A stretch of DNA of 64,000 nucleotides from an uncultured beta proteobacterium (GCA_963792865.1 CAWBYB010000004.1:3826-67825); one strand, 5' to 3'. Numbered from the stretch's first letter, positions 52,272 through 64,000 are shown. Notes: generated by a model not told the origin, from the sequence alone. Program-made: numbers and translations.

Positions 52272-53186
52272 TCAATCGAGCGGCTTCGGCTTGCCGTCGA
52301 CGATCTGGGCGGCGAGGCTCTGCCCATCCGGCATCACGAGCTGGCCGCGCGCGCGCTCCAGGCCCGACTCGAACGTGCCCTCGAAGCGGGTGCCGTCGGT
52401 GAGCCACAGGATGCCCTTGCCGTGGGGACTGCCCTGCCGCACTTCCCCCTGGTAGCGCACGCCGGTGTGGTAGCGAAAGGTCCCCTGCCCGGAGATCGCG
52501 CCCGCCACGATCTCGCCATCGTAGACATCGCCGTTCGCGAACCGATAGGTCCCCAGGCCGCTCGCCCTGCCGTCCACGAAGTCCGCCTCGAGGCTGTCGC
52601 CGTTGCTCCAATAGAAGCGGCCGTGACCCTCGATGCGGCCGCGGTCCATCTCGCCTTCGTAGCGGTCGCCGCCGTGGAAGCGATAGACCCCCACGCCCTG
52701 GGGCTTGCCCGCGACGAACGGGCCGTCGAACGAATCCCCGACCTTCGTCGTATACCGCCCCCGCCCCGCGATGGCGCCCGCCTTCACCTCGCCGTCGTAT
52801 ACGTCGCCGTTCGCGAGCCGGAAGCGGCCGGCGCCGTCGGGCTGGTCGCCGCGGAACTGCCCCTCGTATCGATCGCCGTTCGTCCAGGTGCAGGTGCCCT
52901 GCCCCTGCTTCACCCCGTCGCGGAAATCCCCGCTGTAGGTGAAGGCCTTCGTGATGATCTCGCCGCGCCCGTGGGGAATGGAGCCGCGCACCGCGCCGCG
53001 ATACACGGTGCCGTCGGTGAAGATCAGCTCACGCATTCCGGGCGCGAGAACGGGCGCGGGAGGCACCCCGATGGCGCGCGCGCATTCGCGATAGCCCAGG
53101 ATCGCAGCCGCCAGGACCAGCGCCATGAGCAGCGGCGGCGCACGCCTCGGCGGCGGCGCCACTTGAACGGCGGGTGGCGAGCTCAC
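52272..53186 (-). CDS. MORN-repeat protein with an N-terminal hydrophobic segment
   Basis: About ten 23-aa repeats YxGxxxxGxxxGxGxxxxxxGDx; GTGA overlap with the regulator stop (alternative ATG at 53126). Confidence 0.85.
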   Translation of the reverse strand: MSSPPAVQVAPPPRRAPPLLMALVLAAAILGYRECARAIGVPPAPVLAPGMRELIFTDGTVYRGAVRGSIPHGRGEIITKAFTYSGDFRDGVKQGQGTCTWTNGDRYEGQFRGDQPDGAGRFRLANGDVYDGEVKAGAIAGRGRYTTKVGDSFDGPFVAGKPQGVGVYRFHGGDRYEGEMDRGRIEGHGRFYWSNGDSLEADFVDGRASGLGTYRFANGDVYDGEIVAGAISGQGTFRYHTGVRYQGEVRQGSPHGKGILWLTDGTRFEGTFESGLERARGQLVMPDGQSLAAQIVDGKPKPLD

Positions 53187-54577
53187 TCCAGCTTGTGGCG
53201 CTTGATCTTGCGCCAGAGCGTGGACTTGTCGATGCCCAGGATGTCCGCGGTCGCGGCCCGGTTGCCGTTGTTCTCCCGCAGGGTCTTGGCGATGAAGAGC
53301 GCCTCGACTTCCTCCAGGCTTTGCGGGGAGGCGTTGTCCAGGGAATGCAGGCGCGGCTCCCTTTCCTCGAGCAGCTCCGCGGGCACCGAATCCACGTCGA
53401 GGATCTCGCCGGGAGCGAGGATCAGCATGCGCTGCACCACGTTCTCGAGCTCGCGGCCGTTGCCCGGCCAGTCGTGGCGCACCAGCGCGGCGAGCGCGTG
53501 GGTGCTGAATCCCCGCGCCGGCTTGCCCAGCCGGGCGGCATGCTTGGCGAGGAAGTAGCTCGCGAGCACCGGGATGTCGCCACGGCGCTCGCGCAGCGGC
53601 GGCAGGTGGACCTCGAGCACCTTGAGCCGATAGTAGAGGTCCATGCGAAACTCGCCCGCGCTCACCAGCTCGGGCAGCGGCCGGTTCGTCGCGGCCAGCA
53701 GGCGCACGTCGGTGCGCCGGGGCTCCGTGCTGCCCATCCGGAAGAACGAGCCGTCCTGCAGCACGCGCAGCAGCTTGGCCTGCAGCGAGGCCGGGGCGTT
53801 GTTGATCTCGTCCAGGCACAGGGTGCCGCCGTCGGCAACCTCGAACAACCCCGGCTTCGAGCGTCCGGCGCCCGTGAACGCCCCCGCCTGGTAGCCGAAC
53901 AGCTCGCTTTCGATGAGGCTGTCGGGAATCGCGGCGCAATTGATCGCGACGAAGGACTGGTCGCGCCGGCGGCTGAGGTCGTGGATCATCCGCGAGACGA
54001 TCTCCTTGCCGGTGCCCGACTCTCCCGTGATCAGCACCGCGCAGTCGTAGCCGGCGAACACCTCCACGAGGCGGCGCGCCTCGTCGATCGCCGGGCTCTT
54101 GCCCACGAGCCCGTCGCTTTCCCCGTGTGCGCGGCGCGACTCCCGCAGGCGGTGGTTCTCGCGATTGAGCAGCGCGTACTGCAGGGCGCGCTCGATGGTT
54201 CGCCGCAGGTCGTCGGGCTCGAAGGGCTTGCGCAGGTAGTCGTAGGCGCCCGACTTGAGCGCTTCCACCGCCGACTCTATGGTCCCGTGGCCGGTGATCA
54301 GCACGACCTCGGTGAGCGGGTTGCACTGCTTGGCGAATTTCAGCACGCGCAGGCCGTCGGCGTGCGGCATGCGCAGGTCCGTGAGCACCACCGCGACGTC
54401 CTGCTTCTCGAGCATATCGCCCGCGATGGCCGCGTTGCGTGCCGTCACCACCACCGCGGGCAGGGGCTCCAGCACCTCGGTGAGCAGGGTGCGCATCGCA
54501 TCGTCGTCCTCTACCACGAGGACCACGGCGCGCGCCGCCGCCCCGGGACGCAGCTCAGGCGTCAGCGCAGTGGCCAT
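53183..54577 (-). CDS. Sigma-54-dependent response regulator (NtrC/AtoC/ZraR type)
   Basis: REC (VEDD, TDLRMP), GESGTGKE, GAFTGA, WPGNGRELEN, Fis-type HTH. Confidence 0.95.
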   Translation of the reverse strand: MATALTPELRPGAAARAVVLVVEDDDAMRTLLTEVLEPLPAVVVTARNAAIAGDMLEKQDVAVVLTDLRMPHADGLRVLKFAKQCNPLTEVVLITGHGTIESAVEALKSGAYDYLRKPFEPDDLRRTIERALQYALLNRENHRLRESRRAHGESDGLVGKSPAIDEARRLVEVFAGYDCAVLITGESGTGKEIVSRMIHDLSRRRDQSFVAINCAAIPDSLIESELFGYQAGAFTGAGRSKPGLFEVADGGTLCLDEINNAPASLQAKLLRVLQDGSFFRMGSTEPRRTDVRLLAATNRPLPELVSAGEFRMDLYYRLKVLEVHLPPLRERRGDIPVLASYFLAKHAARLGKPARGFSTHALAALVRHDWPGNGRELENVVQRMLILAPGEILDVDSVPAELLEEREPRLHSLDNASPQSLEEVEALFIAKTLRENNGNRAATADILGIDKSTLWRKIKRHKLE

Positions 54578-56009
54578 GGAGTACGGCTTCGGCAAGGGGC
54601 AGCTTGAGGACGAACCGCGCCCCGCCGCGGTAGGTGGAATCGCAATGCAGCGTGCCGCCGATTCCCATGACGATCGACTGGCTGATCGCGAGGCCCAGCC
54701 CCGTACCCTCGCTGCCCCCCTTCGTCGTGAAGAACGGATTGAACACGCGGCTGTGAACCCCCGCGGGAATGCCCGGCCCGTTGTCGGTGACCGTCACCAC
54801 CGCGCTCGCACCTTCCACCCGGGTCCCGACCACCACCCGAGGGCGCGGAATGGCGCCGGCGCTCGCCTGCAGGGCATTCGTGATCACGTTCACCAGCACG
54901 ATGTCGAGCTGGCCGGAGCCGCCCAGCACGGGCGGGCTCTCGCACAGGTCCACCTCGATCGGCACGTTGAAGTTGTTGCGCCGGCAATCGCAGATGGTCG
55001 CGACGACGTCCCGGATCACCACGTTGATGTCGCAGGTCTCCGGCGCGCAGCGCTCCTTGCGCGCGTAGGTCAGCAGGCTGTCGATGATCCGCGCGCAACG
55101 CTTCGCTTCGCTGTAGATCGCCTGGCCGTACTGCGCGCGTTTCGCCTCGCTCGTGCCGCCGGCGTTCAGCAGCTGGGCATAGCCCACGATGGTCCCGAGC
55201 GGGGTGTTGAGCTCGTGCGCGACGCCGCCCGCGAGCTGTCCCATGGCGACGTATTTCTCCGACTGGTGGGTCACCTCCTGAAGGCGCCGGTAGTCGGTGA
55301 CGTCCTGGAGCATGAGGACGGCGCACGGATCCCGCGCGTCCGGGGAATGCTTGAAGAAAGTGACGCTCAACGTGAAGTGGCGCCTCGCCTCCGCGTCGCC
55401 GAGCACGATCTCGCGATTGCTCACCTGCTGCTCGTACAGGAAGGCCTCGCGCAGCAGCTCCCTGCCCTCGTCGTCGAGCTTCAGCAGGTCGAAGAGGTTG
55501 CGGCCCCGCAGGTCGGTCCCCGCGAGCCCGAAGAGGGCCTCCGCGCGATCGTTCGACGTGGTCACGCAGAAATCGACGTCCACGGCGAGCATCACGCAGG
55601 GCAATCCGCGCAGGATGGCATCGTAGCGGTTGCGCTCCCCGATGATCCAGAGTTGCGAGCGCTCCATCTCCTCGAACAGGGTGCTCAGCCGCTGCGCGAG
55701 GACGTTGTAGTCCGCGACGATGGTTCCGGGGTATGACTGCCCGGGACGATCCGCCGGCTCCAGGTGGCCTTCCAGCGCGCGGCGAATCGCGCGATGCAGC
55801 AACGGCAGGTTGCGATTCCCGGCGCGGAACCCCATGGCCAGGCCGACCGCCAGGGAAATCGCGATGGCGAAAGGGCCGAGCAACCGGCCGGGTAAGGGCA
55901 GGCTCGCCCAGGTCGCCCACGAGACCACGGCGAGGACCAGTGCCACGCCGACAGCCAGCACCAGCGGCCAGACGGGCGCGCGCGCGCGTTCCACGCGCGC
56001 CGGCACCAT
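54555..56009 (-). CDS. PAS-domain sensor histidine kinase
   Basis: Two TM helices, PAS, GVAHELNTP H-box, NVITNA, DNGPG, PFFTTK, GTGLGL. Confidence 0.92.
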   Translation of the reverse strand: MVPARVERARAPVWPLVLAVGVALVLAVVSWATWASLPLPGRLLGPFAIAISLAVGLAMGFRAGNRNLPLLHRAIRRALEGHLEPADRPGQSYPGTIVADYNVLAQRLSTLFEEMERSQLWIIGERNRYDAILRGLPCVMLAVDVDFCVTTSNDRAEALFGLAGTDLRGRNLFDLLKLDDEGRELLREAFLYEQQVSNREIVLGDAEARRHFTLSVTFFKHSPDARDPCAVLMLQDVTDYRRLQEVTHQSEKYVAMGQLAGGVAHELNTPLGTIVGYAQLLNAGGTSEAKRAQYGQAIYSEAKRCARIIDSLLTYARKERCAPETCDINVVIRDVVATICDCRRNNFNVPIEVDLCESPPVLGGSGQLDIVLVNVITNALQASAGAIPRPRVVVGTRVEGASAVVTVTDNGPGIPAGVHSRVFNPFFTTKGGSEGTGLGLAISQSIVMGIGGTLHCDSTYRGGARFVLKLPLAEAVLHGHCADA

Positions 56010-56224
56010 GCCCTCGATCAGATCGCCACTGGCCCGCAAGAAACCTCCCCCCGCTCTCGACGGCGCGGCGCGGGACGATCCTGGTATTGTTCCCTGCGAA
56101 TCCCCCGGCCGGCGACGCAACAAGTCACCCGAGACGGATCCATTAAATCATATCGGCGCGGAGCCGGATGAGGGGCGGCGGAGGGCCCGCGACCCGGGGC
56201 GCGGGCGCGCCCGGCGCTCGCCGC

Positions 56225-57337
56225 TCACTTCCCTTGGACCGAAAGCGATGGGCGCAGCCGCGCCATCGAACGCCCCACCCACTGGATGGCTCCCCAGACG
56301 ATGAGCACGCCGACCAGTATCGCGCTGCCAAGCGCCAGCCAGCCGGGCAGGATGGGCGTGAGGCCCGTGGCCAGGTCGCCGAACTCGAGGCTGGTCAGGG
56401 GATCCAGCTTGGGCCGGTAATCCACGAGCAGGAGATTCACCACCCAGCCCGCGAGAATGGACAGGGAGACGACTCCGCCCACGTAGATGGCCACGGTCCG
56501 CGTGCCGAGCACCCGCTGCAGCGCGATGATCTCCGGCAGGTTGGTCGCCGCCCCGGTCACCAGGAACACGATCGCCGCGCCGGGGCCGGCGCCCGCGGCG
56601 AGCATCGCGGCGACCAGCGGGATATGCGCCACCGCGCAGACGTAGATGCTGGCGCCGAAGAGCGCGACCATCAGCAGCGAGGCAAGCGGCGCGGCGCCTC
56701 CCAGGTGGCTCGAGATCCAGCCGGAAGGAGCGAGGACCCCGAGCAGTCCCGCGAGCACGATGCCGATCCCGATGTAGAAGCCGAGCGTCGGGCCCAGCTC
56801 CCCGAACCCCCACTTGAAGGCGCGCGTCAGGCGCGCGCCCAGGCTCGCGGCGGAGGCAGGCCGGGACGCGGCGGGCTCGGAGCAGCAGCACGATTGCAGG
56901 CGCACCGCGGTCGGATTCATGCCCGTGTCGCCCCACCTCTCGGCCATGTAGCCCACGACGATCGGCGCGCTCAGCCCGAAGATCACGTAGGCGAGGGTGA
57001 GCTGCGGGCCGAGCAGCGCATAGGACAGGACGACGGCGGCCGGATTGATCACCGGCGTCGCGATGGTGAACGCGATGACGGCGGCCAGCCGCACGCCGCC
57101 CAGGAAGAAGCTCACCGCCAGGGGGATCACGCCGCAACTGCAGATCGGCAGCGTGGCGCCCAGCGCCATGCTGGCGAGCACGCCCGCGCCGCCCGACTCG
57201 CGCATCGCCCGCTGGACCCTTCCGGTGTCCATGAACTCATGGATGAGCCCACCCGCCAGGAGGCTCACGAGAATCCAGAACCCGGCCTCCTGCAGCAGAC
57301 CGGCGGCCAGCAGTGCCATTTCGCGAAGGACTTGCAT
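56225..57337 (-). CDS. DUF318 / ArsP-family permease
   Basis: LPICSCGVIP, ATPVINP, IYVCAVAHIP, FLVTGAATN; extra SCCCS in the central loop. Confidence 0.88.
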   Translation of the reverse strand: MQVLREMALLAAGLLQEAGFWILVSLLAGGLIHEFMDTGRVQRAMRESGGAGVLASMALGATLPICSCGVIPLAVSFFLGGVRLAAVIAFTIATPVINPAAVVLSYALLGPQLTLAYVIFGLSAPIVVGYMAERWGDTGMNPTAVRLQSCCCSEPAASRPASAASLGARLTRAFKWGFGELGPTLGFYIGIGIVLAGLLGVLAPSGWISSHLGGAAPLASLLMVALFGASIYVCAVAHIPLVAAMLAAGAGPGAAIVFLVTGAATNLPEIIALQRVLGTRTVAIYVGGVVSLSILAGWVVNLLLVDYRPKLDPLTSLEFGDLATGLTPILPGWLALGSAILVGVLIVWGAIQWVGRSMARLRPSLSVQGK

Positions 57338-57368: not shown

Positions 57369-57806
57369 TCACCCGGCGCGGCGCTCGAGAGCGCCCAACT
57401 GGGCGAACGCGGTCCTCAACTCGGCCTCCAGGTCGTGCATCAGGTCGGCGGGACACATGAGCCGCCCGCCCGACTGGCACTGCGAGGCGGCGTTCAGCAG
57501 GGCGTTCGTGAGGATCATCGAGCGTTGCAGCTGGAGCAGCCCGGGCGGCGGATTGGGGATGGCGCGCACGATCTCGCGCAGCCGCTCCCGATGCGCCTCG
57601 ATCTCGCGCCGGAAATCGGCAGCGCTCGCATGTTCCTTGGCCTCCCTCGCGAGGACCGCCGATCGCTCGATCCATGCGCGCTCCGCCAGCAGCGTTCGCT
57701 TGGCCAGGGCCTGGCGCACAGGAATCCACGCCAGCAGGCAGGTCGCGGCCGCCATGATCCATCGCCGCCGGGCCGGGCGCCGCGGGCCCGTGGTCCGGGA
57801 AAGCAC
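57369..57806 (-). CDS. Small exported helical protein of unknown function
   Basis: RRRWIMAAATCLLAW...ALA (Tat/Sec-like signal), amphipathic helices, CQSGGRLMC; start uncertain. Confidence 0.55.
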   Translation of the reverse strand: MLSRTTGPRRPARRRWIMAAATCLLAWIPVRQALAKRTLLAERAWIERSAVLAREAKEHASAADFRREIEAHRERLREIVRAIPNPPPGLLQLQRSMILTNALLNAASQCQSGGRLMCPADLMHDLEAELRTAFAQLGALERRAG

Positions 57807-57844: not shown

Positions 57845-58576
57845 TCAGGACGGGCGTTGGCCGAAACGACGCGCATCCTCCGCCGCATACGAGGCGACGG
57901 CCTTGTCGGCCTTGCAGCTCGCGCCGAGCCTCGCGACCACCTCCCCGAGCTTGCTCACGGGGATCGCGCACGTCATCTCGTTGTTCGTCATGCCCGTTCG
58001 CGTGCGGCTCAGCATGCACCCGACGCTGAGCGCCACCTGCCCCATCTCCTTGGCGATCGGGATGATGTGGCATTGCGGCTTGCCTTCGAAGCGGATGTCG
58101 GGCATCGCATCATGCAGCGACATGGCCTGCTTCCCGTTGACCCGCAGGAAGACGACATCGGGATCGAACTTCGTGTCGCCGAGCGGTCCGTAGACCACGC
58201 ACTTCGGGCGCTGCTTCACCACCGGGATGCCGGGAAACATCTCCGGGGCGACCCATTGGGCCTCGACCAGGGCCTTCACGTCGGACTTCGTCGCCGCCGC
58301 GTCGAGCCCGACGAACCCGTGCGTGAGGCTGCCCACGCTGCAATTGGCATGGTCCTCGGCACAGGTGTGGAACGTGCGGTCGACGGCCTTCATCCAGAAC
58401 ACGCACCCCGCCGATACCTTCCCCGTGCGCCCATCGGACGTCGGCTGCGGCATGGCGCCCTCGTAGCGCGGCATCCCCGCCGGCTCCTCCTGCGTGAACG
58501 TGATCGCCAGCGGTGGCGAGCCCAGCGTCAGCAGGTCGGTCAATGCGCCTGCAATGGCCTTGTAGTCGTGCTTCAT
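57845..58576 (-). CDS. DUF169-family protein
   Basis: GCVFW, HANCSVG, YGPL...PDVV, PQC, SVGCMLSR...EM...IP; AGGAG RBS. Confidence 0.8.
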   Translation of the reverse strand: MKHDYKAIAGALTDLLTLGSPPLAITFTQEEPAGMPRYEGAMPQPTSDGRTGKVSAGCVFWMKAVDRTFHTCAEDHANCSVGSLTHGFVGLDAAATKSDVKALVEAQWVAPEMFPGIPVVKQRPKCVVYGPLGDTKFDPDVVFLRVNGKQAMSLHDAMPDIRFEGKPQCHIIPIAKEMGQVALSVGCMLSRTRTGMTNNEMTCAIPVSKLGEVVARLGASCKADKAVASYAAEDARRFGQRPS

Positions 58577-58607
58577 GTAGTGGCTCCTGTTCCGTCGCCT
58601 TGCGAAG

Positions 58608-60599
58608 CTAGCAGCCGCCGCAGGGATTGCAAACTCCTCCGCCGCCCCCACCGCCGCCGCCCCCACCGCCACCACTGCCGCCGCTGCTCGAGGTCGTCGA
58701 CGTGGAAGTCGGCTGCGCCTTATAGCTCGCGAACGCGAAGCCGGTCGCGTTGCCCGGCAACGTAATGACGTCGACCAGCTTGCGTGAGGCCACGTCGATC
58801 ACGTCGACGCTGTTGTTGCGCAGCTGGTAGAACTTCTTGCCGTTGGGCCCGAAGCTGCCGCTGAACGCGCTCGGCAGCGCCATGGTCTCCTTGATCTTGT
58901 AGGGCGCGCCGATGCCGGTCAAGTCCACGATCTGGAATCCATCGATCGCGCCGAAGCCGGTTCCCGTGAGCAGCCAGACCTCGTCGCTGAACAGGACGTA
59001 GTCGGTTCCGCTGCCTTGCTTCCTTGCGATGTTCGCCTCGCTGGTACCGGCGCGGCCGTTGAGACCGTTCAGGATGTAGCCCGGGCCCGGGTCGGAGGCG
59101 TTGACCTTCTTCAGGTACGCGCTGGTGACGTCCTGGCTCACGCCCGACCCGCTGTCCGCGGGCAGCGCCACGTACTGGTAGTCGACGTTCTTCGCCACGC
59201 CCCCGGTGCTCACGTAGCTCACCGAGACCGCATAGGTGGTGCCGTTCACGAAGGGCGCGCTGCCGATGTCGGTCGCGAGGACATACTTGAGGTTGGTCAC
59301 CAGGCGCTGCACCTCGAAAACATTCGACGGGTTGGTCACGTCCCAGATGCTTTCGCTGTTGTCACCCTCGTTCTCCACGGTCATGAAGAACTCGTTGCCC
59401 ACGTTGCGGTTGAGCAGCGAGGCCATCCAGGGGCCCGTGCGCTGGCCCGAGGAACTGAAAGCCGCGGAACCCTTGCCGCCCGCGGAAACCGGCGCGGCGG
59501 ACCGGCTGATCACCGGGACCGGGACCTGGACCACTTGCGGGCTCGCCGTGTCGATCTTGCCCATGTTCACGCCGGTGATCGTGTCGCCGTTCACGTCGGG
59601 CCACCAGGTCCACACCTCGCCGGCGGCGTTGCGCAGCGCCGTCGAGTCGCACGGCTCGCTGTAGGTGTTCTTGTCGGTTTCGGAAGTTCCCCCCGAGGCG
59701 CGGTTGTAGTTGGTCTTGCCGGGAGCCGTCCCGCCGGCGGGCGTGTACAGGCCCGCGAAATGCGCCACCACGCTGTTGTTCTGGTCCTTGACCACGCCCA
59801 GGCGCGGATAGACGAAACGCACCGGGTACCCGAAGGTGGGCGAGTTGGGATCGGTATCGAGGAAGTAGGCGTGGTCGCCGATGCGCTCCGCGACCATGGT
59901 GAGCTTGCCGTCGGGCGCGGGCTCGATGCCTACCGGCGTGTAGCCCATGTTGTGGAAGGGCGGCGCCACCGCGATGGCCTTGGCCATCAGGTCCGAGCCC
60001 AGCTTGGTGTCGATGCCGCTGCGCGAAGAGCGCACCGCGCATATGTCGATGACGCGGGCCTCCTCGTAGGTGAGGCTCGTCCGGTTGAAGTACTTCTGCA
60101 GGGTGGCCCTCTGCTTCGCCGCGGCGGCGTCGCCCTGTGCGACCTCGAGCGCCAGTGCCTTCTGGTCCACGATGCCCGGGCCGATCGTTCCTTCGCGGTT
60201 GCCCTGGACGGAAGGCGCGTTGTATGGGCGCGGGAGCACCTGCAGCGTGTTGGGATCGATGCCCCACACCAGGGCCCCGGCATCCACCCAGATGGGCCCG
60301 TCGTAGAACGCCTGCTTGTGGGTCCCGCCCGAGCCGGAGACGCCAACGACGGCCGTCTTCATGATCTGGTCCGAGTCGAGGTCGACGCGCGCAATGCTGT
60401 CGCCGGTGCCGTCGCCGTCCGAATCGTAGAAGACGAACAGTGCCGGGGTGAGGACCGGCTGCGTCGCGGTATTGAACTGCAGGGTGCCGCTGCTCTCCCC
60501 GCCGGAGCAACCCGCCAGCGCGAGCGCCGCGGCGAAGGTGGCGGCGAGCGGCCACCACATGCGATGTTCCCGATCAACGCGGATGAGTTGGTCCTTCAT
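58608..60599 (-). CDS. Large lipoprotein, probable beta-propeller, with a Ser/Thr/Gly linker and C-terminal CNPCGGC
   Basis: GGAGG RBS, lipobox LAGC, blade-like repeats (APDGK, FGPNGKKFY, VDVIDVASRKLVDVI), 663 aa. Confidence 0.8.
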   Translation of the reverse strand: MKDQLIRVDREHRMWWPLAATFAAALALAGCSGGESSGTLQFNTATQPVLTPALFVFYDSDGDGTGDSIARVDLDSDQIMKTAVVGVSGSGGTHKQAFYDGPIWVDAGALVWGIDPNTLQVLPRPYNAPSVQGNREGTIGPGIVDQKALALEVAQGDAAAAKQRATLQKYFNRTSLTYEEARVIDICAVRSSRSGIDTKLGSDLMAKAIAVAPPFHNMGYTPVGIEPAPDGKLTMVAERIGDHAYFLDTDPNSPTFGYPVRFVYPRLGVVKDQNNSVVAHFAGLYTPAGGTAPGKTNYNRASGGTSETDKNTYSEPCDSTALRNAAGEVWTWWPDVNGDTITGVNMGKIDTASPQVVQVPVPVISRSAAPVSAGGKGSAAFSSSGQRTGPWMASLLNRNVGNEFFMTVENEGDNSESIWDVTNPSNVFEVQRLVTNLKYVLATDIGSAPFVNGTTYAVSVSYVSTGGVAKNVDYQYVALPADSGSGVSQDVTSAYLKKVNASDPGPGYILNGLNGRAGTSEANIARKQGSGTDYVLFSDEVWLLTGTGFGAIDGFQIVDLTGIGAPYKIKETMALPSAFSGSFGPNGKKFYQLRNNSVDVIDVASRKLVDVITLPGNATGFAFASYKAQPTSTSTTSSSGGSGGGGGGGGGGGGGVCNPCGGC
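58635..58715 (-). repeat. Low-complexity poly-Gly/Ser/Thr linker
   Basis: Encodes PTSTSTTSSSGGS followed by a long Gly run with mixed GGN codons. Confidence 0.85.
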
Positions 60600-60682: not shown

Positions 60683-61894
60683 TCAGAAGATGAACTGCAG
60701 TGCCAGCGTCGTATGGTCGTAATCCCGCAGCGAAGGGTCAGTCGGATGCTGCTTGTCGAACTTGATCTTCGCGTACTCCAGGCTGAGCCTCAGGTTCTGG
60801 CCGTTGATGTAGTAGTTGACGCCGAGCCCGTCCCACTTCTGGGAGAAGTATCCGCTGTCGACCCCGTATTTCGATCGCTCGTAACGGAAGTAGGGCTGGA
60901 GCCTGCCGATGCCGACCTTGTTCGGAAACAGGTAGGCCCCCTTCACGTAGTAAGCCTTCAGCTCGGAGGCCACCGAAAGCGAGGGATCGGGATCCTCGTT
61001 GATCGCATTGCCGGTGTTGTAGTCGAAGTACGCCGTCGACAGGACGTAGGTTCCGCCCGCCGTGGGGTACTCCATCATCGCGTCCACGGTCCACGCCTTG
61101 TAGTTCTTGATGTCGGTGCGCTGCGTGTAGTTGCCATAGGCCACGTTCGCCTGGTAGTCGTAGGCGGCGCCGATCGTGAGTACCTTCTTGGTACCCAGGT
61201 AATTGCTGTGATAGCCGTAGTCCGTCTCGGGGTCCCACAGCGACAGGTGCACCCGCGCGGTGAGACGCGGCGACTTCTTCGGGACCACGTCGCCCTGGCG
61301 GCCGTCGGCCACCATCAAGCGGTACTGGAATTTCCCGTCGGCGAGGTTGCCCCACAGGGAGACGCCGTCGTCGCGCGTGCCGCCCTGAGCCCCGAAGGGC
61401 GAATAGGCGATCACCTCGGCGCGGTCGATGCTGAGCGGCTCCATGCAGGCTTCGAGGTTCTCGCGGCTGAACGTGTTCTTGAATCGGCCGGCGATCAGGC
61501 GCAGTCCGTCGGTGTAGTCGACCGTGAGGTAGGCGTCGCGGTAGTAGATCGACTTGTCGGCGTTGCCCTGCTTGTCGTCGTTGCCTGACTCGATCTGGAC
61601 GTAGTACCCGACCAGGTCGTTGGCCTGGCCCGCGAACAACAGGCGATTGCGGCGAAAGAAATTATCGTAGGTGCGGCCGTTGTCGGTCGATGACGTGTAG
61701 CTCTGTTCCTGCGACCAGAACTGGAACGCGTAGCTGATCGTGATGTAGCCCTCGTCCCCGAACGGAATGGTCGGGCCCGCGAAGGCGCTCGGCGCGGCAC
61801 CTGCGGCGAGAGCGAGCGCGGAGCAAAGCGCCAGGTGGTTCATCGTGTCGCGGGCTCGCGCGGCGTTGGTCCCCTTGCGGTTCTTCACGGTCAT
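60683..61894 (-). CDS. Outer-membrane porin, ExtI-like (phosphate-selective porin superfamily)
   Basis: Signal peptide, FRRNRL, SRENLEAC.PL.IDR, TRDDGVSLWGN, DPETDYGY...YLG.KKVLTIG, C-terminal LQFIF beta-signal; resembles Geobacter ExtI from recall. Confidence 0.8.
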   Translation of the reverse strand: MTVKNRKGTNAARARDTMNHLALCSALALAAGAAPSAFAGPTIPFGDEGYITISYAFQFWSQEQSYTSSTDNGRTYDNFFRRNRLLFAGQANDLVGYYVQIESGNDDKQGNADKSIYYRDAYLTVDYTDGLRLIAGRFKNTFSRENLEACMEPLSIDRAEVIAYSPFGAQGGTRDDGVSLWGNLADGKFQYRLMVADGRQGDVVPKKSPRLTARVHLSLWDPETDYGYHSNYLGTKKVLTIGAAYDYQANVAYGNYTQRTDIKNYKAWTVDAMMEYPTAGGTYVLSTAYFDYNTGNAINEDPDPSLSVASELKAYYVKGAYLFPNKVGIGRLQPYFRYERSKYGVDSGYFSQKWDGLGVNYYINGQNLRLSLEYAKIKFDKQHPTDPSLRDYDHTTLALQFIF

Positions 61895-62463
61895 TTCCCC
61901 CCTCCGGAAGCGATCTGATAGGTCTTCAGCAGGGTGGGCGCATCGCCCGACTTGTGGCACTTGGTGCATGCCTCGGGCTTGGTCCGCGGATCCTTCGCCA
62001 GGTTGGCGTGGGCGAGATCCTTCTTGATGATCCGGGGATTTCCGCCATGGCATCCGACGCAATCATCGTTGACCGTCATGTGGTCCGTGTGCCAGGGATT
62101 GGACTTCTTGTCCATCTTCGGCGCCTCGGCGCGGGTGCCGTTGTGGCACTTGAAGCACGAGGAAGCCCCGAGGCCGCAGGCATTGGCGATGGAGATGGGC
62201 GCCAGCGCGAAGGCCCGGTCGCGAACCGCGTCCAGCGCCTCGCTGCCCCAGGCCGCCGTCTGCGTGCCGGATACCGGCGGTGCGGCGCGGGATTGTCCCG
62301 CAGTTGCCCGCGCCTGGATGGCGCGCGTTTCCGGCTGCGAGAGCGAGACGAACGAACTCCAGGCCACGGCGAGTACCCAGATCGCGGCCACGGCACCTGC
62401 ACCCATGGATACCTTGCGGGCGACCTTGCGGAAGATCGGCCCGATCCCCTTCATTCGATCCAT
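61891..62463 (-). CDS. Membrane-anchored triheme cytochrome c
   Basis: CFKCH, CVGCH, CTKCH; N-terminal TM helix; GAGGAG RBS; ATGA-coupled to the porin. Confidence 0.85.
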   Translation of the reverse strand: MDRMKGIGPIFRKVARKVSMGAGAVAAIWVLAVAWSSFVSLSQPETRAIQARATAGQSRAAPPVSGTQTAAWGSEALDAVRDRAFALAPISIANACGLGASSCFKCHNGTRAEAPKMDKKSNPWHTDHMTVNDDCVGCHGGNPRIIKKDLAHANLAKDPRTKPEACTKCHKSGDAPTLLKTYQIASGGGK

Positions 62464-62564: not shown

Positions 62565-62849
62565 CTAACGGCTGGCCTGCGCGCGCTCTTCCTGCGCCTT
62601 CTTGATCGCGGCTTCCGACGTTCCCCCCGATGCGCAGTCACAAGCGCAAGTGCCGTCCTTGCCACGGAACTTCAGCCGGGACTTCCTCACGCTCTTGTCG
62701 GCCGAGGCCCGGGTGGCGGCCGGGACGCCCTGCGCCGGCGCGACGGCTTTCTGCGCGGCGTCCGCGGGCGCAGCGGCGGCTGCCAGGCACTGCGTCGCGG
62801 CAAGGCCGAGGCCTATCGCGAGCAGGTATCGAAACGATCGTCCCATCAT
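62565..62849 (-). CDS. Small secreted protein with a CACDC motif
   Basis: GGGAG RBS, signal peptide, Ala/Pro linker, RLKFRGKDGTCACDCASGGTSE; 94 aa. Confidence 0.7.
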   Translation of the reverse strand: MMGRSFRYLLAIGLGLAATQCLAAAAAPADAAQKAVAPAQGVPAATRASADKSVRKSRLKFRGKDGTCACDCASGGTSEAAIKKAQEERAQASR

Positions 62850-62950
62850 CGTGGCTCCCGGGATCAACAAGTCGAGGCGATTGCGCCAACCGAAGCTGTA
62901 CCGCTGAACGAACCAATTTATTGCGCACGATCAAAGTTGCGCTTGACCAA

Positions 62951-63083: not shown

Positions 63084-64000
63084 CTACCGCGGCGGAATCG
63101 GCCTGCTCAATCGATACAGCTCGTAGCCGCCGCCAGTCTGCGCCAGCGCCTCGCGCAACAGAGGAACGGCGTCGGGAGGCAATCGACCCTTCCTTTCCAG
63201 AACGCTTCGAAACAGGCGCTCGTAATGCTTGCCCGGAGAGACGATCACCTGCAGCTCGACCTTCCATCCCTTCTCCTGCGGGGCGGGGAACCGTCCCCCG
63301 AACAGCAAGCGTCCGCCGGGAGCGATGCGCGTGTCCGAGATCTCGTGCTTGAGATCCAGATCGACGTGCCTGCCGATCACCTGCCGAGCGAGCTCCGTGC
63401 GGGCACGGCCGCTCGCATCCACCAGGCGCAGGCTGGCCACCACTTCGGGCACGACGTAGGTGGGAAAGTAGTGCCCGGCGCCAATGTTGGCGAGCCGCCC
63501 CTGGACCCAAATGACTTCCTTGCCGCGGCGCCGCACCTCGAGAGAAACGGTGAGTGCCTTGCGCACCATGTCCGCATCGTGGATTCCGCGCCACAGGTGC
63601 CGGCCGCCGGGCATGTGACAGGACTGGCACGATCTTCCTTGCCGCGCCGCAGGGCTCGCCCGCCATTCGACGAAGGTGTTCTCGAGGAGCTTGCCGTTCA
63701 CGCTGGGTCCGTCGGCGGGGAATTGATGGCAGACCGCGCAGAAGCGGCTGTCCCGGAATCCGGCGTCCGGCGTGAAGCCCCCATGCGGCAGGGCGGCAGC
63801 ATCGCTGGCGCGCTCGGCGCCGCCCCGGGCAGGAGGGCCGTAGCGCGCATGTCCTCGCACGTGACAGGCGGCGCATACGAGGCCTTCACGATGCAAGTCC
63901 GGCGCGACATAAGGCGGCGGCGGCGTGGCGGGAACGTGCGCCCAATGCATCTCCACGGCGAGCAGCGCCTTTTGCTCCGCGAGCGGTGCGTGGCAGCGCA
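63084..64000 (-). CDS. Multiheme cytochrome c (c554-like), 5' end outside the window
   Basis: Truncated xRCHAP at the window edge, then CAACH, CAVCH, CQSCHMP, GHYFPT. Confidence 0.85.
   Translation of the reverse strand, partial: RCHAPLAEQKALLAVEMHWAHVPATPPPPYVAPDLHREGLVCAACHVRGHARYGPPARGGAERASDAAALPHGGFTPDAGFRDSRFCAVCHQFPADGPSVNGKLLENTFVEWRASPAARQGRSCQSCHMPGGRHLWRGIHDADMVRKALTVSLEVRRRGKEVIWVQGRLANIGAGHYFPTYVVPEVVASLRLVDASGRARTELARQVIGRHVDLDLKHEISDTRIAPGGRLLFGGRFPAPQEKGWKVELQVIVSPGKHYERLFRSVLERKGRLPPDAVPLLREALAQTGGGYELYRLSRPIPPR

Follow-up and report, generated by a model that had tools for sequence, protein, structure and literature searches.

A propeller lipoprotein substitutes for a rhodanese within the ExtI porin cassette of sulfur oxidisers and retains its C-terminal cysteine tail

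Introduction

The subject of the present study is a lipoprotein gene lying at 58608..60599 on the minus strand of a 64,000-nucleotide stretch of DNA from an uncultured beta proteobacterium (GCA_963792865.1 CAWBYB010000004.1:3826-67825). This whole stretch is called the window below, and positions are counted from its first letter. An initial annotation, made from the sequence alone, described the encoded protein, P0001, as a propeller-like body carrying a three-cysteine swinging arm. We find that, in the cassette of the ExtI porin, the propeller stands where other genomes have a rhodanese, and that it retains the NPCG(G) tail of that rhodanese. It is this natural swap of lipoproteins that is new here, the kind of system being already known: in Geobacter sulfurreducens, the extHIJKL cassette encodes the rhodanese lipoprotein ExtH, the porin ExtI and the polysulfide reductase MccSep/ExtKL (PMC5877670, PMC13510729).

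The propeller lipoprotein and its family

The features of the gene are the following.

58608..60599 (-): beta-propeller lipoprotein gene (P0001), 663 residues, ATG start, TAG stop; no Pfam family
60507..60599 (-): lipoprotein signal peptide up to the lipobox LAG-C31, from the sequence; C31 in 50/52 rows of the alignment
58716..60455 (-): predicted propeller of seven blades, interrupted by helical and beta insertions, residues ~49-628 (AlphaFold2, structure searches, DSSP strands)
60039..60041 (-): C187, invariant cysteine (52/52 rows; 10/11 in the remote alignment)
59646..59657 (-): E315-P-C317-D318, invariant motif (family alignment); C-D kept even in the most remote relatives
58635..58715 (-): 27-residue Ser/Thr/Gly linker Q629-G655, predicted disordered (sequence and AlphaFold2)
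58614..58628 (-): tail core N-P-C660-G-G, common to ExtH-like rhodaneses; C660 codon at 58620-58622
58611..58631 (-): C657-N-P-C660-G-G-C663; C657 and C663 are clade-specific additions (alignment, tree)

The lipoprotein reading frame, the lipobox, the 27-residue linker and the end CNPCGGC-TAG, all of them initially annotated, are present in the sequence, with V656 standing between linker and tail. P0001 has six cysteines, at positions 31, 187, 317, 657, 660 and 663. Because a contig from another soil run covers 58064-58840 without gaps (62 differing letters), and because a homologue 93% identical to P0001 shares its C-terminal end, the tail is not an assembly artefact.

For the body, Pfam gave no family and NCBIfam nothing near a cut-off, its one weak match lying over the signal peptide; NCBIfam also holds no model for the tail. 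The PDB sequence search returned only linkers of antibody single-chain variable fragments, matched through the glycine run, and in the literature searched, which left subscription journals outside its scope, neither the propeller nor the NPCGG tail was found described. The propeller family is real and conserved, and it is without a name. That it is also a new enzyme family, as initially proposed, is something we infer, and its catalysis is putative.

P0001 has 55 close homologues, to which a 50%-representative search adds few before it reaches generic propeller repeats. The alignment comprises 52 full-length rows and excludes the partial or aberrant P0009, P0016, P0028 and P0036, three of which have the NPCG tail, the end of P0016 being unrelated. 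More than 30 polar, aromatic and cysteine residues are invariant in rows down to ~38% identity, and C187, E315-P-C317-D318, P390-W-M392, R239, D242, Y220, E409 and R516 are found in 52/52; in the remote alignment, C317-D318 is retained in relatives at ~25% identity. On our reading of the model, many invariant residues lie at the starts of inner strands and in adjoining loops, where they would form one face of the propeller. No histidine is invariant in the 52 rows (H94 in 36, H216 in 43, H243 in 45). All the candidate ligand motifs initially listed (THK, DIC, HNM, DH, EPCD, PWM) do exist in P0001, and C187, EPCD and PWM are kept in every row, but the histidines of THK, HNM and DH are not invariant.

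The AlphaFold2 model of P0001, built on the 52-row alignment (predicted local distance difference score, pLDDT, 79.2; predicted template-modelling score 0.78), has an all-beta body with insertions, for which the count of seven blades is read from the DSSP strand list. Tail residues 634-663 are predicted to be disordered, with pLDDT <50. The propeller-like body initially suggested is supported by this model and by the structure searches, in which 1l0q_A, a YVTN propeller of seven blades, matches best (Z 26.7, root-mean-square deviation 3.0 Å, 292 aligned residues, 18% identity); as a fold match it is generic, WD40 proteins also matching at Z 20-22. Foldseek matched NirF and cd1 at low template-modelling scores. 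YncE/lactonase-like clusters at 0.91-0.93 are the Atlas neighbours, a weak lead with a recognition value under the threshold. The YVTN repeat model TIGR02276 has no match in P0001 and one in the remote relative P0062. P0001 shares its predicted overall fold with the seven-bladed YVTN/YncE propellers (PDB 1l0q and 3u4y; NirF and cd1 by Foldseek), but differs from them in that insertions make up about half of its 580-residue body, in an identity of at most 18%, in invariant residues of its own and in the cysteine tail.

Copper propeller enzymes have several invariant histidine ligands, and a copper-propeller enzyme of the type of N2O reductase or thiocyanate dehydrogenase can be rejected here, no histidine being invariant. 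The top rows of the structure searches are generic propellers, and the fold-search matches listed include no thiocyanate dehydrogenase, methanethiol oxidase or tetrathionate hydrolase.

The tail and the exchange of lipoproteins

The tail is present in 38 of the 52 rows, and all 38 have [NS]-P-C-G at the position of C660. Three cysteines are found in 15 rows (10 with the exact CxxCxxC, 5 with other spacing) and one in 23, the remaining 14 rows having no tail. In a FastTree tree, calculated from the alignment without tails and without bootstrap, the three-cysteine tails group together in a single clade with support 99, which lies within the one-cysteine tails, and 16 tail-less rows form a separate clade that retains all invariant core residues. 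The arm is therefore not needed for the role of the body. In P0061 the propeller is circularly permuted, and the tail, PPPNPCASP, is still C-terminal.

On this alignment, the conserved residue of the tail is C660, and CxxCxxC appears as a local elaboration. The initially annotated C-x2-C-x2-C ending in GGC is thus true of P0001 itself but not of the family, in which the exact CxxCxxC occurs in 10/52 rows and the GGC end in 9/52. The suggestion that three cysteines would suit As, Hg or Fe-S binding does not carry over either, three-cysteine tails being confined to one derived clade of 15. The comparison with SoxY stands as far as the conserved core C-G-G at the carboxy end is concerned, although the functional cysteine would be the middle C660 and not that of the terminal GGC. 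As for the conservation of tail and EPCD, the motif is found throughout (52/52) and the tail cysteine in every tail (38/38), but 14/52 rows are tail-less. A swinging arm is plausible, resting on one cysteine rather than three.

Among remote relatives, both cysteines are present in P0063 and in the gene at L024:213-1769. Where the cysteine tail would be, P0063 has an anchor-like tail that is hydrophobic and basic-ended, and the L024 gene is followed by a dihaem cytochrome gene.

The same tail occurs on a second protein. Locus L008 also encodes P0117, an ExtH-like rhodanese lipoprotein with a glycine linker and the end LPPNPCG, and among its 638 relatives each of the best 120 has an NPCG(G)-like end with exactly one cysteine in the last 15 residues. 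The rhodanese is predicted to adopt a tandem rhodanese fold with an undocked tail, and has an invariant catalytic-type cysteine in CETT. P0001 gives no match to ExtH (NF040901), and its fold is unlike the tandem rhodanese. When the loci were scanned for the tail with a linker filter, it was found on the propeller and on the rhodanese only.

The surroundings of the two lipoproteins agree in part. In the 25 rhodanese loci of at least 9 kb, ExtI is found in 21, a pentahaem cytochrome in 23 and YeeE in 23; an ArsP-like protein, DUF169 and a small two-cysteine protein, by contrast with the propeller loci, are found in 0/55 rhodanese loci with flanks of up to 8 kb. In the window's own family, ExtI is present in 21/143 genomes, and these are exactly the 15 with the rhodanese and the 6 with the propeller, without overlap. 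Of the 143 genomes, the 6 with the propeller, and no others, have the small two-cysteine protein. In a second order (103 genomes), the propeller is present in 8, ExtI in 11, a tailed lipoprotein in 11 and both in 10; one genome of this order, G001, carries both lipoproteins. It should be pointed out that the genomes are related and partly incomplete, so that this co-occurrence is a pattern and not statistics. A search for Geobacter-type ExtH gave one weak match in 33 genomes.

These observations show that the propeller stands in the rhodanese's place in the ExtI cassette with the NPCG(G) tail retained, and the tail is a cassette-wide module, not the property of one enzyme. The initially proposed link of the arm with porin and cytochrome gains from this, since a sulfurtransferase family of unrelated fold bears the tail in the same porin cassette, but no docking of the arm on its own body is predicted.

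At L115:1441-2775 lies a tail-less ExtH-like rhodanese, divergent from an ExtI-like porin that retains its cysteine.

The genomic cassette

Upstream of the propeller gene lie the ExtI porin, a trihaem cytochrome, a CxCxC protein and a pentahaem cytochrome, and downstream DUF169, the two-cysteine protein, a permease of ArsP/SaoE-like type and the genes of a two-component system.

60683..61894 (-): ExtI-family porin (NF040900, 329.8 bits, cut-off 150; start codon inferred)
61445-61447 (-): invariant cysteine of ExtI, RENLEAC; sole cysteine in 40/40 mature sequences, in R-E-N-L-E-x-C
61891..62463 (-): small trihaem c-type cytochrome, three CxxCH; 14/23 loci
62565..62870 (-): small exported CxCxC protein; 12/23 loci
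63084..64000 (-): pentahaem cytochrome, 3' part, the gene extending past the window; distant MccSep/c552 relative
57845..58576 (-): DUF169 protein (PF02596, E 4.8e-24); 13/23 loci
57369..57755 (-): small two-cysteine protein, C-x3-G-R-x2-C-P; start inferred, no family name
56225..57337 (-): ArsP/SaoE-like permease with CSC motif (PF03773, E 1.9e-40; SaoE 267.6 bits, below 325); 17/23 loci
53183..56123 (-): PAS histidine kinase and sigma-54 response regulator; 10/23 propeller loci, 14-15/25 long rhodanese loci

The counts for propeller loci cover 23 loci, with the remote L024 excluded, and many of these loci end at contig ends. The pentahaem cytochrome is found in 18, the ArsP-like permease in 17, the two-cysteine protein in 15, ExtI in 13 and YeeE in 12; less common are SaoD-like (6), MerB-like (5) and MerR-like (1) proteins. 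The MerB-like proteins retain CA-x-D plus a later cysteine. A scan for sigma-54 motifs found no conserved site.

The pentahaem cytochrome has five CxxCH in 50/50 sequences, 46/50 of them without an extra cysteine, and a profile search relates it to 9wt8 (E 2e-12), the score against NF040886 being 36.3 bits with a cut-off of 250. It is without C239 and U325 of MccSep: C239/C240 align to L-E, and the GHSIPDGU loop to GHYFPTYV. MccSep and Thermochromatium c552 have a large family of pentahaem relatives in which a glutamate beside the position of MccSep C239 is invariant, and an open haem site is possible in this family.

Several further observations concern the neighbourhood. Just past the window (L025:4520-7436) lie, divergently, TusA, YeeE/YedE, TusA, a 43-residue membrane peptide and, named by resemblance and without a match in family searches, three small proteins of DsrE/F/H-like type. 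YeeE/YedE (L025:4813-6223, G000:C4) is in two frames, genome G000 having one extra base relative to the close relative L015; the split is either an assembly error or a pseudogene. The cassette adjoins sat and apr genes in L001, L004, L010 and L012. An S8 peptidase lipoprotein and a 210-residue partner adjoin the propeller in L008, L021 (3018-5516) and L023, and a MerR-like regulator (L021:5570-6013) lies directly upstream of a propeller of the tail-less clade.

The hosts are sulfur oxidisers. The propeller gene is patchy in the window's family (6/143 genomes), and dsrA is found in 6/6 propeller genomes against 39/143 family genomes (a tally that includes G207), with soxB in 5/5 propeller genomes tested. 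Named records of homologues come from Usitatibacter, Rubrivivax, Sulfuricaulis, Thiogranum, Thiohalophilus, Thioalkalivibrio and Thiotrichales. The propeller of a Thiohalophilus sp. is P0041, and a record of Thiohalobacter thiocyanaticus, P0178, has the rhodanese.

Relation to known systems

Like G. sulfurreducens extHIJKL, the cassette pairs a true one-cysteine ExtI porin with an adjoining lipoprotein, and both also include a pentahaem cytochrome of MccSep type and an exported protein of small size. It differs in having a propeller lipoprotein instead of the rhodanese, in a cytochrome without C239 and U325, and in its hosts, which are sulfur oxidisers with rDsr and Sox; in addition, it brings YeeE/TusA/DsrE, ArsP-like and two-component genes. 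In MccSep, polysulfide reductase activity depends on C239 and U325 (PMC13510729).

SoxY holds sulfur on the cysteine of a C-terminal GGCGG swinging arm (PMC6067878). P0001 resembles SoxY of SoxYZ (TIGR04488) in presenting Cys-Gly-Gly at a free, flexible C-terminus, and in being a periplasm-side protein of sulfur oxidisers. Unlike SoxY, it has no SoxY domain (NCBIfam) and no SoxZ, bears NPCGG on a 30-residue linker and is membrane-anchored. Of the three C-termini, GGCGG in SoxY, NPCGGC in P0001 and the family consensus NPCGG, CGG alone is shared. A genuine SoxY is encoded elsewhere in the genome G000.

The CSC permease and the SaoD/DsrE-like and MerB-like neighbours recall the SAO system (SaoE, SaoD, SaoL; bioRxiv 2022.07.06.499078) and ArsP/MerB. 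All SAO scores are below their cut-offs (SaoE 267.6/325, SaoD 143.4/169, SaoL 68.3/140). The propeller cassette also differs in having no link to the Sec machinery and no MerA over the cut-off, and in its hosts, which are diderm sulfur oxidisers instead of fermenting anaerobes. The SaoP/A/B/X ABC importer was not seen among the neighbours scanned, no genome-wide search having been made.

Interpretation

We favour, at a little short of even chances, a reading in which the propeller is the interchangeable front end of a sulfur-uptake cassette and the tail cysteine a persulfide carrier in the fashion of SoxY. The lipid anchor would hold the propeller at the outer membrane beside ExtI, where a pocket on the propeller face (C317-D318, K95, R239, Y220, W391, M392, E409, R516) would take a sulfur atom from the substrate. 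C660 would then carry this sulfur as a persulfide on the ~30-residue arm, and the arm would hand it to the single cysteine of the porin and/or to the pentahaem cytochrome. From there the sulfur would pass to YeeE/TusA/DsrE and feed the cytoplasmic Dsr pathway; YeeE-like proteins bring sulfur into a sulfur oxidiser (PMC11582611). The two extra cysteines, C657 and C663, may be a later tuning of the arm in the three-cysteine clade.

As to the donor, the ArsP/SaoE-like, MerB-like and SaoD-like genes accompany the propeller and not the rhodanese, which suggests a thioarsenate-type donor that leaves a toxic metal(loid) behind. ArsP is a methylarsenite exporter. The name 'Organo-Arsenical Exporter' is used for it in bioRxiv 2022.07.06.499078. 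A sulfur-metal(loid) donor, thioarsenate for example, is unlikely all the same. Decidedly unlikely is the complete scheme, in which NPCG(G)-COOH would be a portable persulfide arm borne by surface enzymes that can replace one another, and the propeller, as a new sulfurtransferase fold dependent on cysteine, would strip thioarsenates or metal-polysulfides; the hand-off would go via the porin cysteine or, in trans, the pentahaem cytochrome, with its catalytic cysteine and selenocysteine lost, and an ArsP-type exporter would remove the metal(loid).

A number of results weigh against the persulfide arm and its proposed donor. AlphaFold2 leaves the arm undocked on its own body, in the propeller and in the rhodanese alike, and intramolecular docking was dropped as a candidate. 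The 16 propellers of the tail-less clade keep the whole invariant core, and at L115 an ExtH-like protein is tail-less beside an ExtI-like porin; the body can therefore do without the tail, and so can some ExtI pairs. A structural disulfide could account for C187 and C317. Two genomes hold both lipoproteins (that of L008, and G001), and in G247, a tailed-propeller genome, no ExtI was found, in a genome search that is incomplete. The propeller genomes are also few and related, which means that the co-occurrence counts are not independent, and the absence of ArsP at rhodanese loci is bounded by the 8-kb flanks. No ars or mer operon was found around the propeller, the scan for ars covering 70 of the 127 neighbours listed, and MerA exceeds its cut-off in 0/5 genomes, four of which are 99-100% complete.

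The tail could instead be a docking or sorting tag, NPCG(G) threading into the ExtI barrel, with C660 either in a disulfide with the porin cysteine or part of a surface-display signal, and the propeller would then be cargo with a separate job. This is somewhat unlikely. In its favour, one motif is found on two unrelated folds, always at the free C-terminus, even in the circular permutant, and tailed lipoproteins co-occur almost perfectly with ExtI. The porin has exactly one cysteine in 40/40 sequences, and likewise in Geobacter (PMC5877670), where loss of ExtI is reported to change the localisation of ExtH (Jahan 2019, as cited in PMC8981825). The tail-less-type loci L021 and L024 have a different barrel protein, and no ExtI was found in G252; these loci are only two, however, one of them truncated and placed by the tree. 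The remote P0063 has its hydrophobic, basic-ended tail in the same place. On the other hand, L115 pairs a tail-less ExtH-like protein with an ExtI-like porin, the tail closely resembles the sulfur-carrying CGG end of SoxY, and the extra cysteines in 15 rows would be superfluous for a tag.

It is quite improbable that the propeller is part of a module for handling heavy metals or organometals (ArsP/SaoE, a MerB-like lyase, a MerR-like regulator), with the cysteine arm acting as a metal(loid) chaperone of As(III), Hg(II) or Cu and sulfur transfer being incidental. The neighbours are what speaks for it: ArsP-like, MerB-like and SaoD-like genes in 17, 5 and 6 of the 23 loci, the MerB-like proteins with CA-x-D and the later cysteine intact, a MerR-like gene directly upstream in L021, and the SAO precedent (bioRxiv 2022.07.06.499078), together with the three-cysteine tails of 15 rows. 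But 23/38 propeller tails, and the best 120 of the 638 rhodanese relatives, have one cysteine only, the ArsP-like gene is found in 0/55 rhodanese loci, and the module sits in dsrA genomes (6/6). Also in favour of the module, the two invariant cysteines and the aspartate of the propeller presumably recall the MerB site. Classical mercury resistance is rejected, with MerA over the cut-off in 0/5 genomes, which also counts against the chaperone.

A non-catalytic scaffold or adhesin, stabilising the porin-cytochrome complex or attaching cells to sulfur or mineral surfaces, is very improbable. The best fold match is indeed an archaeal surface-layer YVTN propeller, but this match is generic (18% identity; WD40 at Z 20-22). 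No histidine is invariant, and NHL propellers are reported beside outer-membrane cytochrome clusters (bioRxiv 2022.05.06.490989). More than 30 other residues are invariant, however, many of them at inner-strand starts and adjoining loops, and the propeller stands in for an enzyme-type protein in the cassette.

A selenoprotein family, with NPCGG-UGA read as selenocysteine and C663 as the cysteine version, is extremely improbable: C663 does align with the stop of one-cysteine relatives, four loci read CGG-TGA-TAA and the Geobacter cassette contains a selenoprotein (PMC13510729), but the selA-positive propeller genomes of the second lineage stop with TAG (G049), TAA (G092) and TGA (G004), no selA was found in four of five TGA genomes or in any of the 6 propeller genomes of the window's family, TGA is anyway the commonest stop in G000 (1029/1665 long reading frames), and the rhodanese tails stop with TGA in 14, TAA in 5 and TAG in 1. 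Selenocysteine read-through is rejected, as the stops do not track selA. We note that selD is present in 4/5 propeller genomes, its background frequency not having been measured, and that a putative short hairpin of the GATC(G/A)C-N4-GTGA(T/A)C type lies 20-30 bases past the TGA stop in L005, L006, L009 and L022.

Conclusion

The reading that we prefer, a persulfide arm in a sulfur-uptake cassette, touches on two matters. The transfer of zero-valent or bound sulfur through the outer membrane of sulfur oxidisers is poorly understood, and for thioarsenate oxidation the enzyme route is described as unknown (PMC6620896). Since a swap of lipoproteins preserves only a five-residue cysteine tail, this tail is singled out as the part through which ExtI systems would work, and a propeller family without a name gains a function-bearing context.

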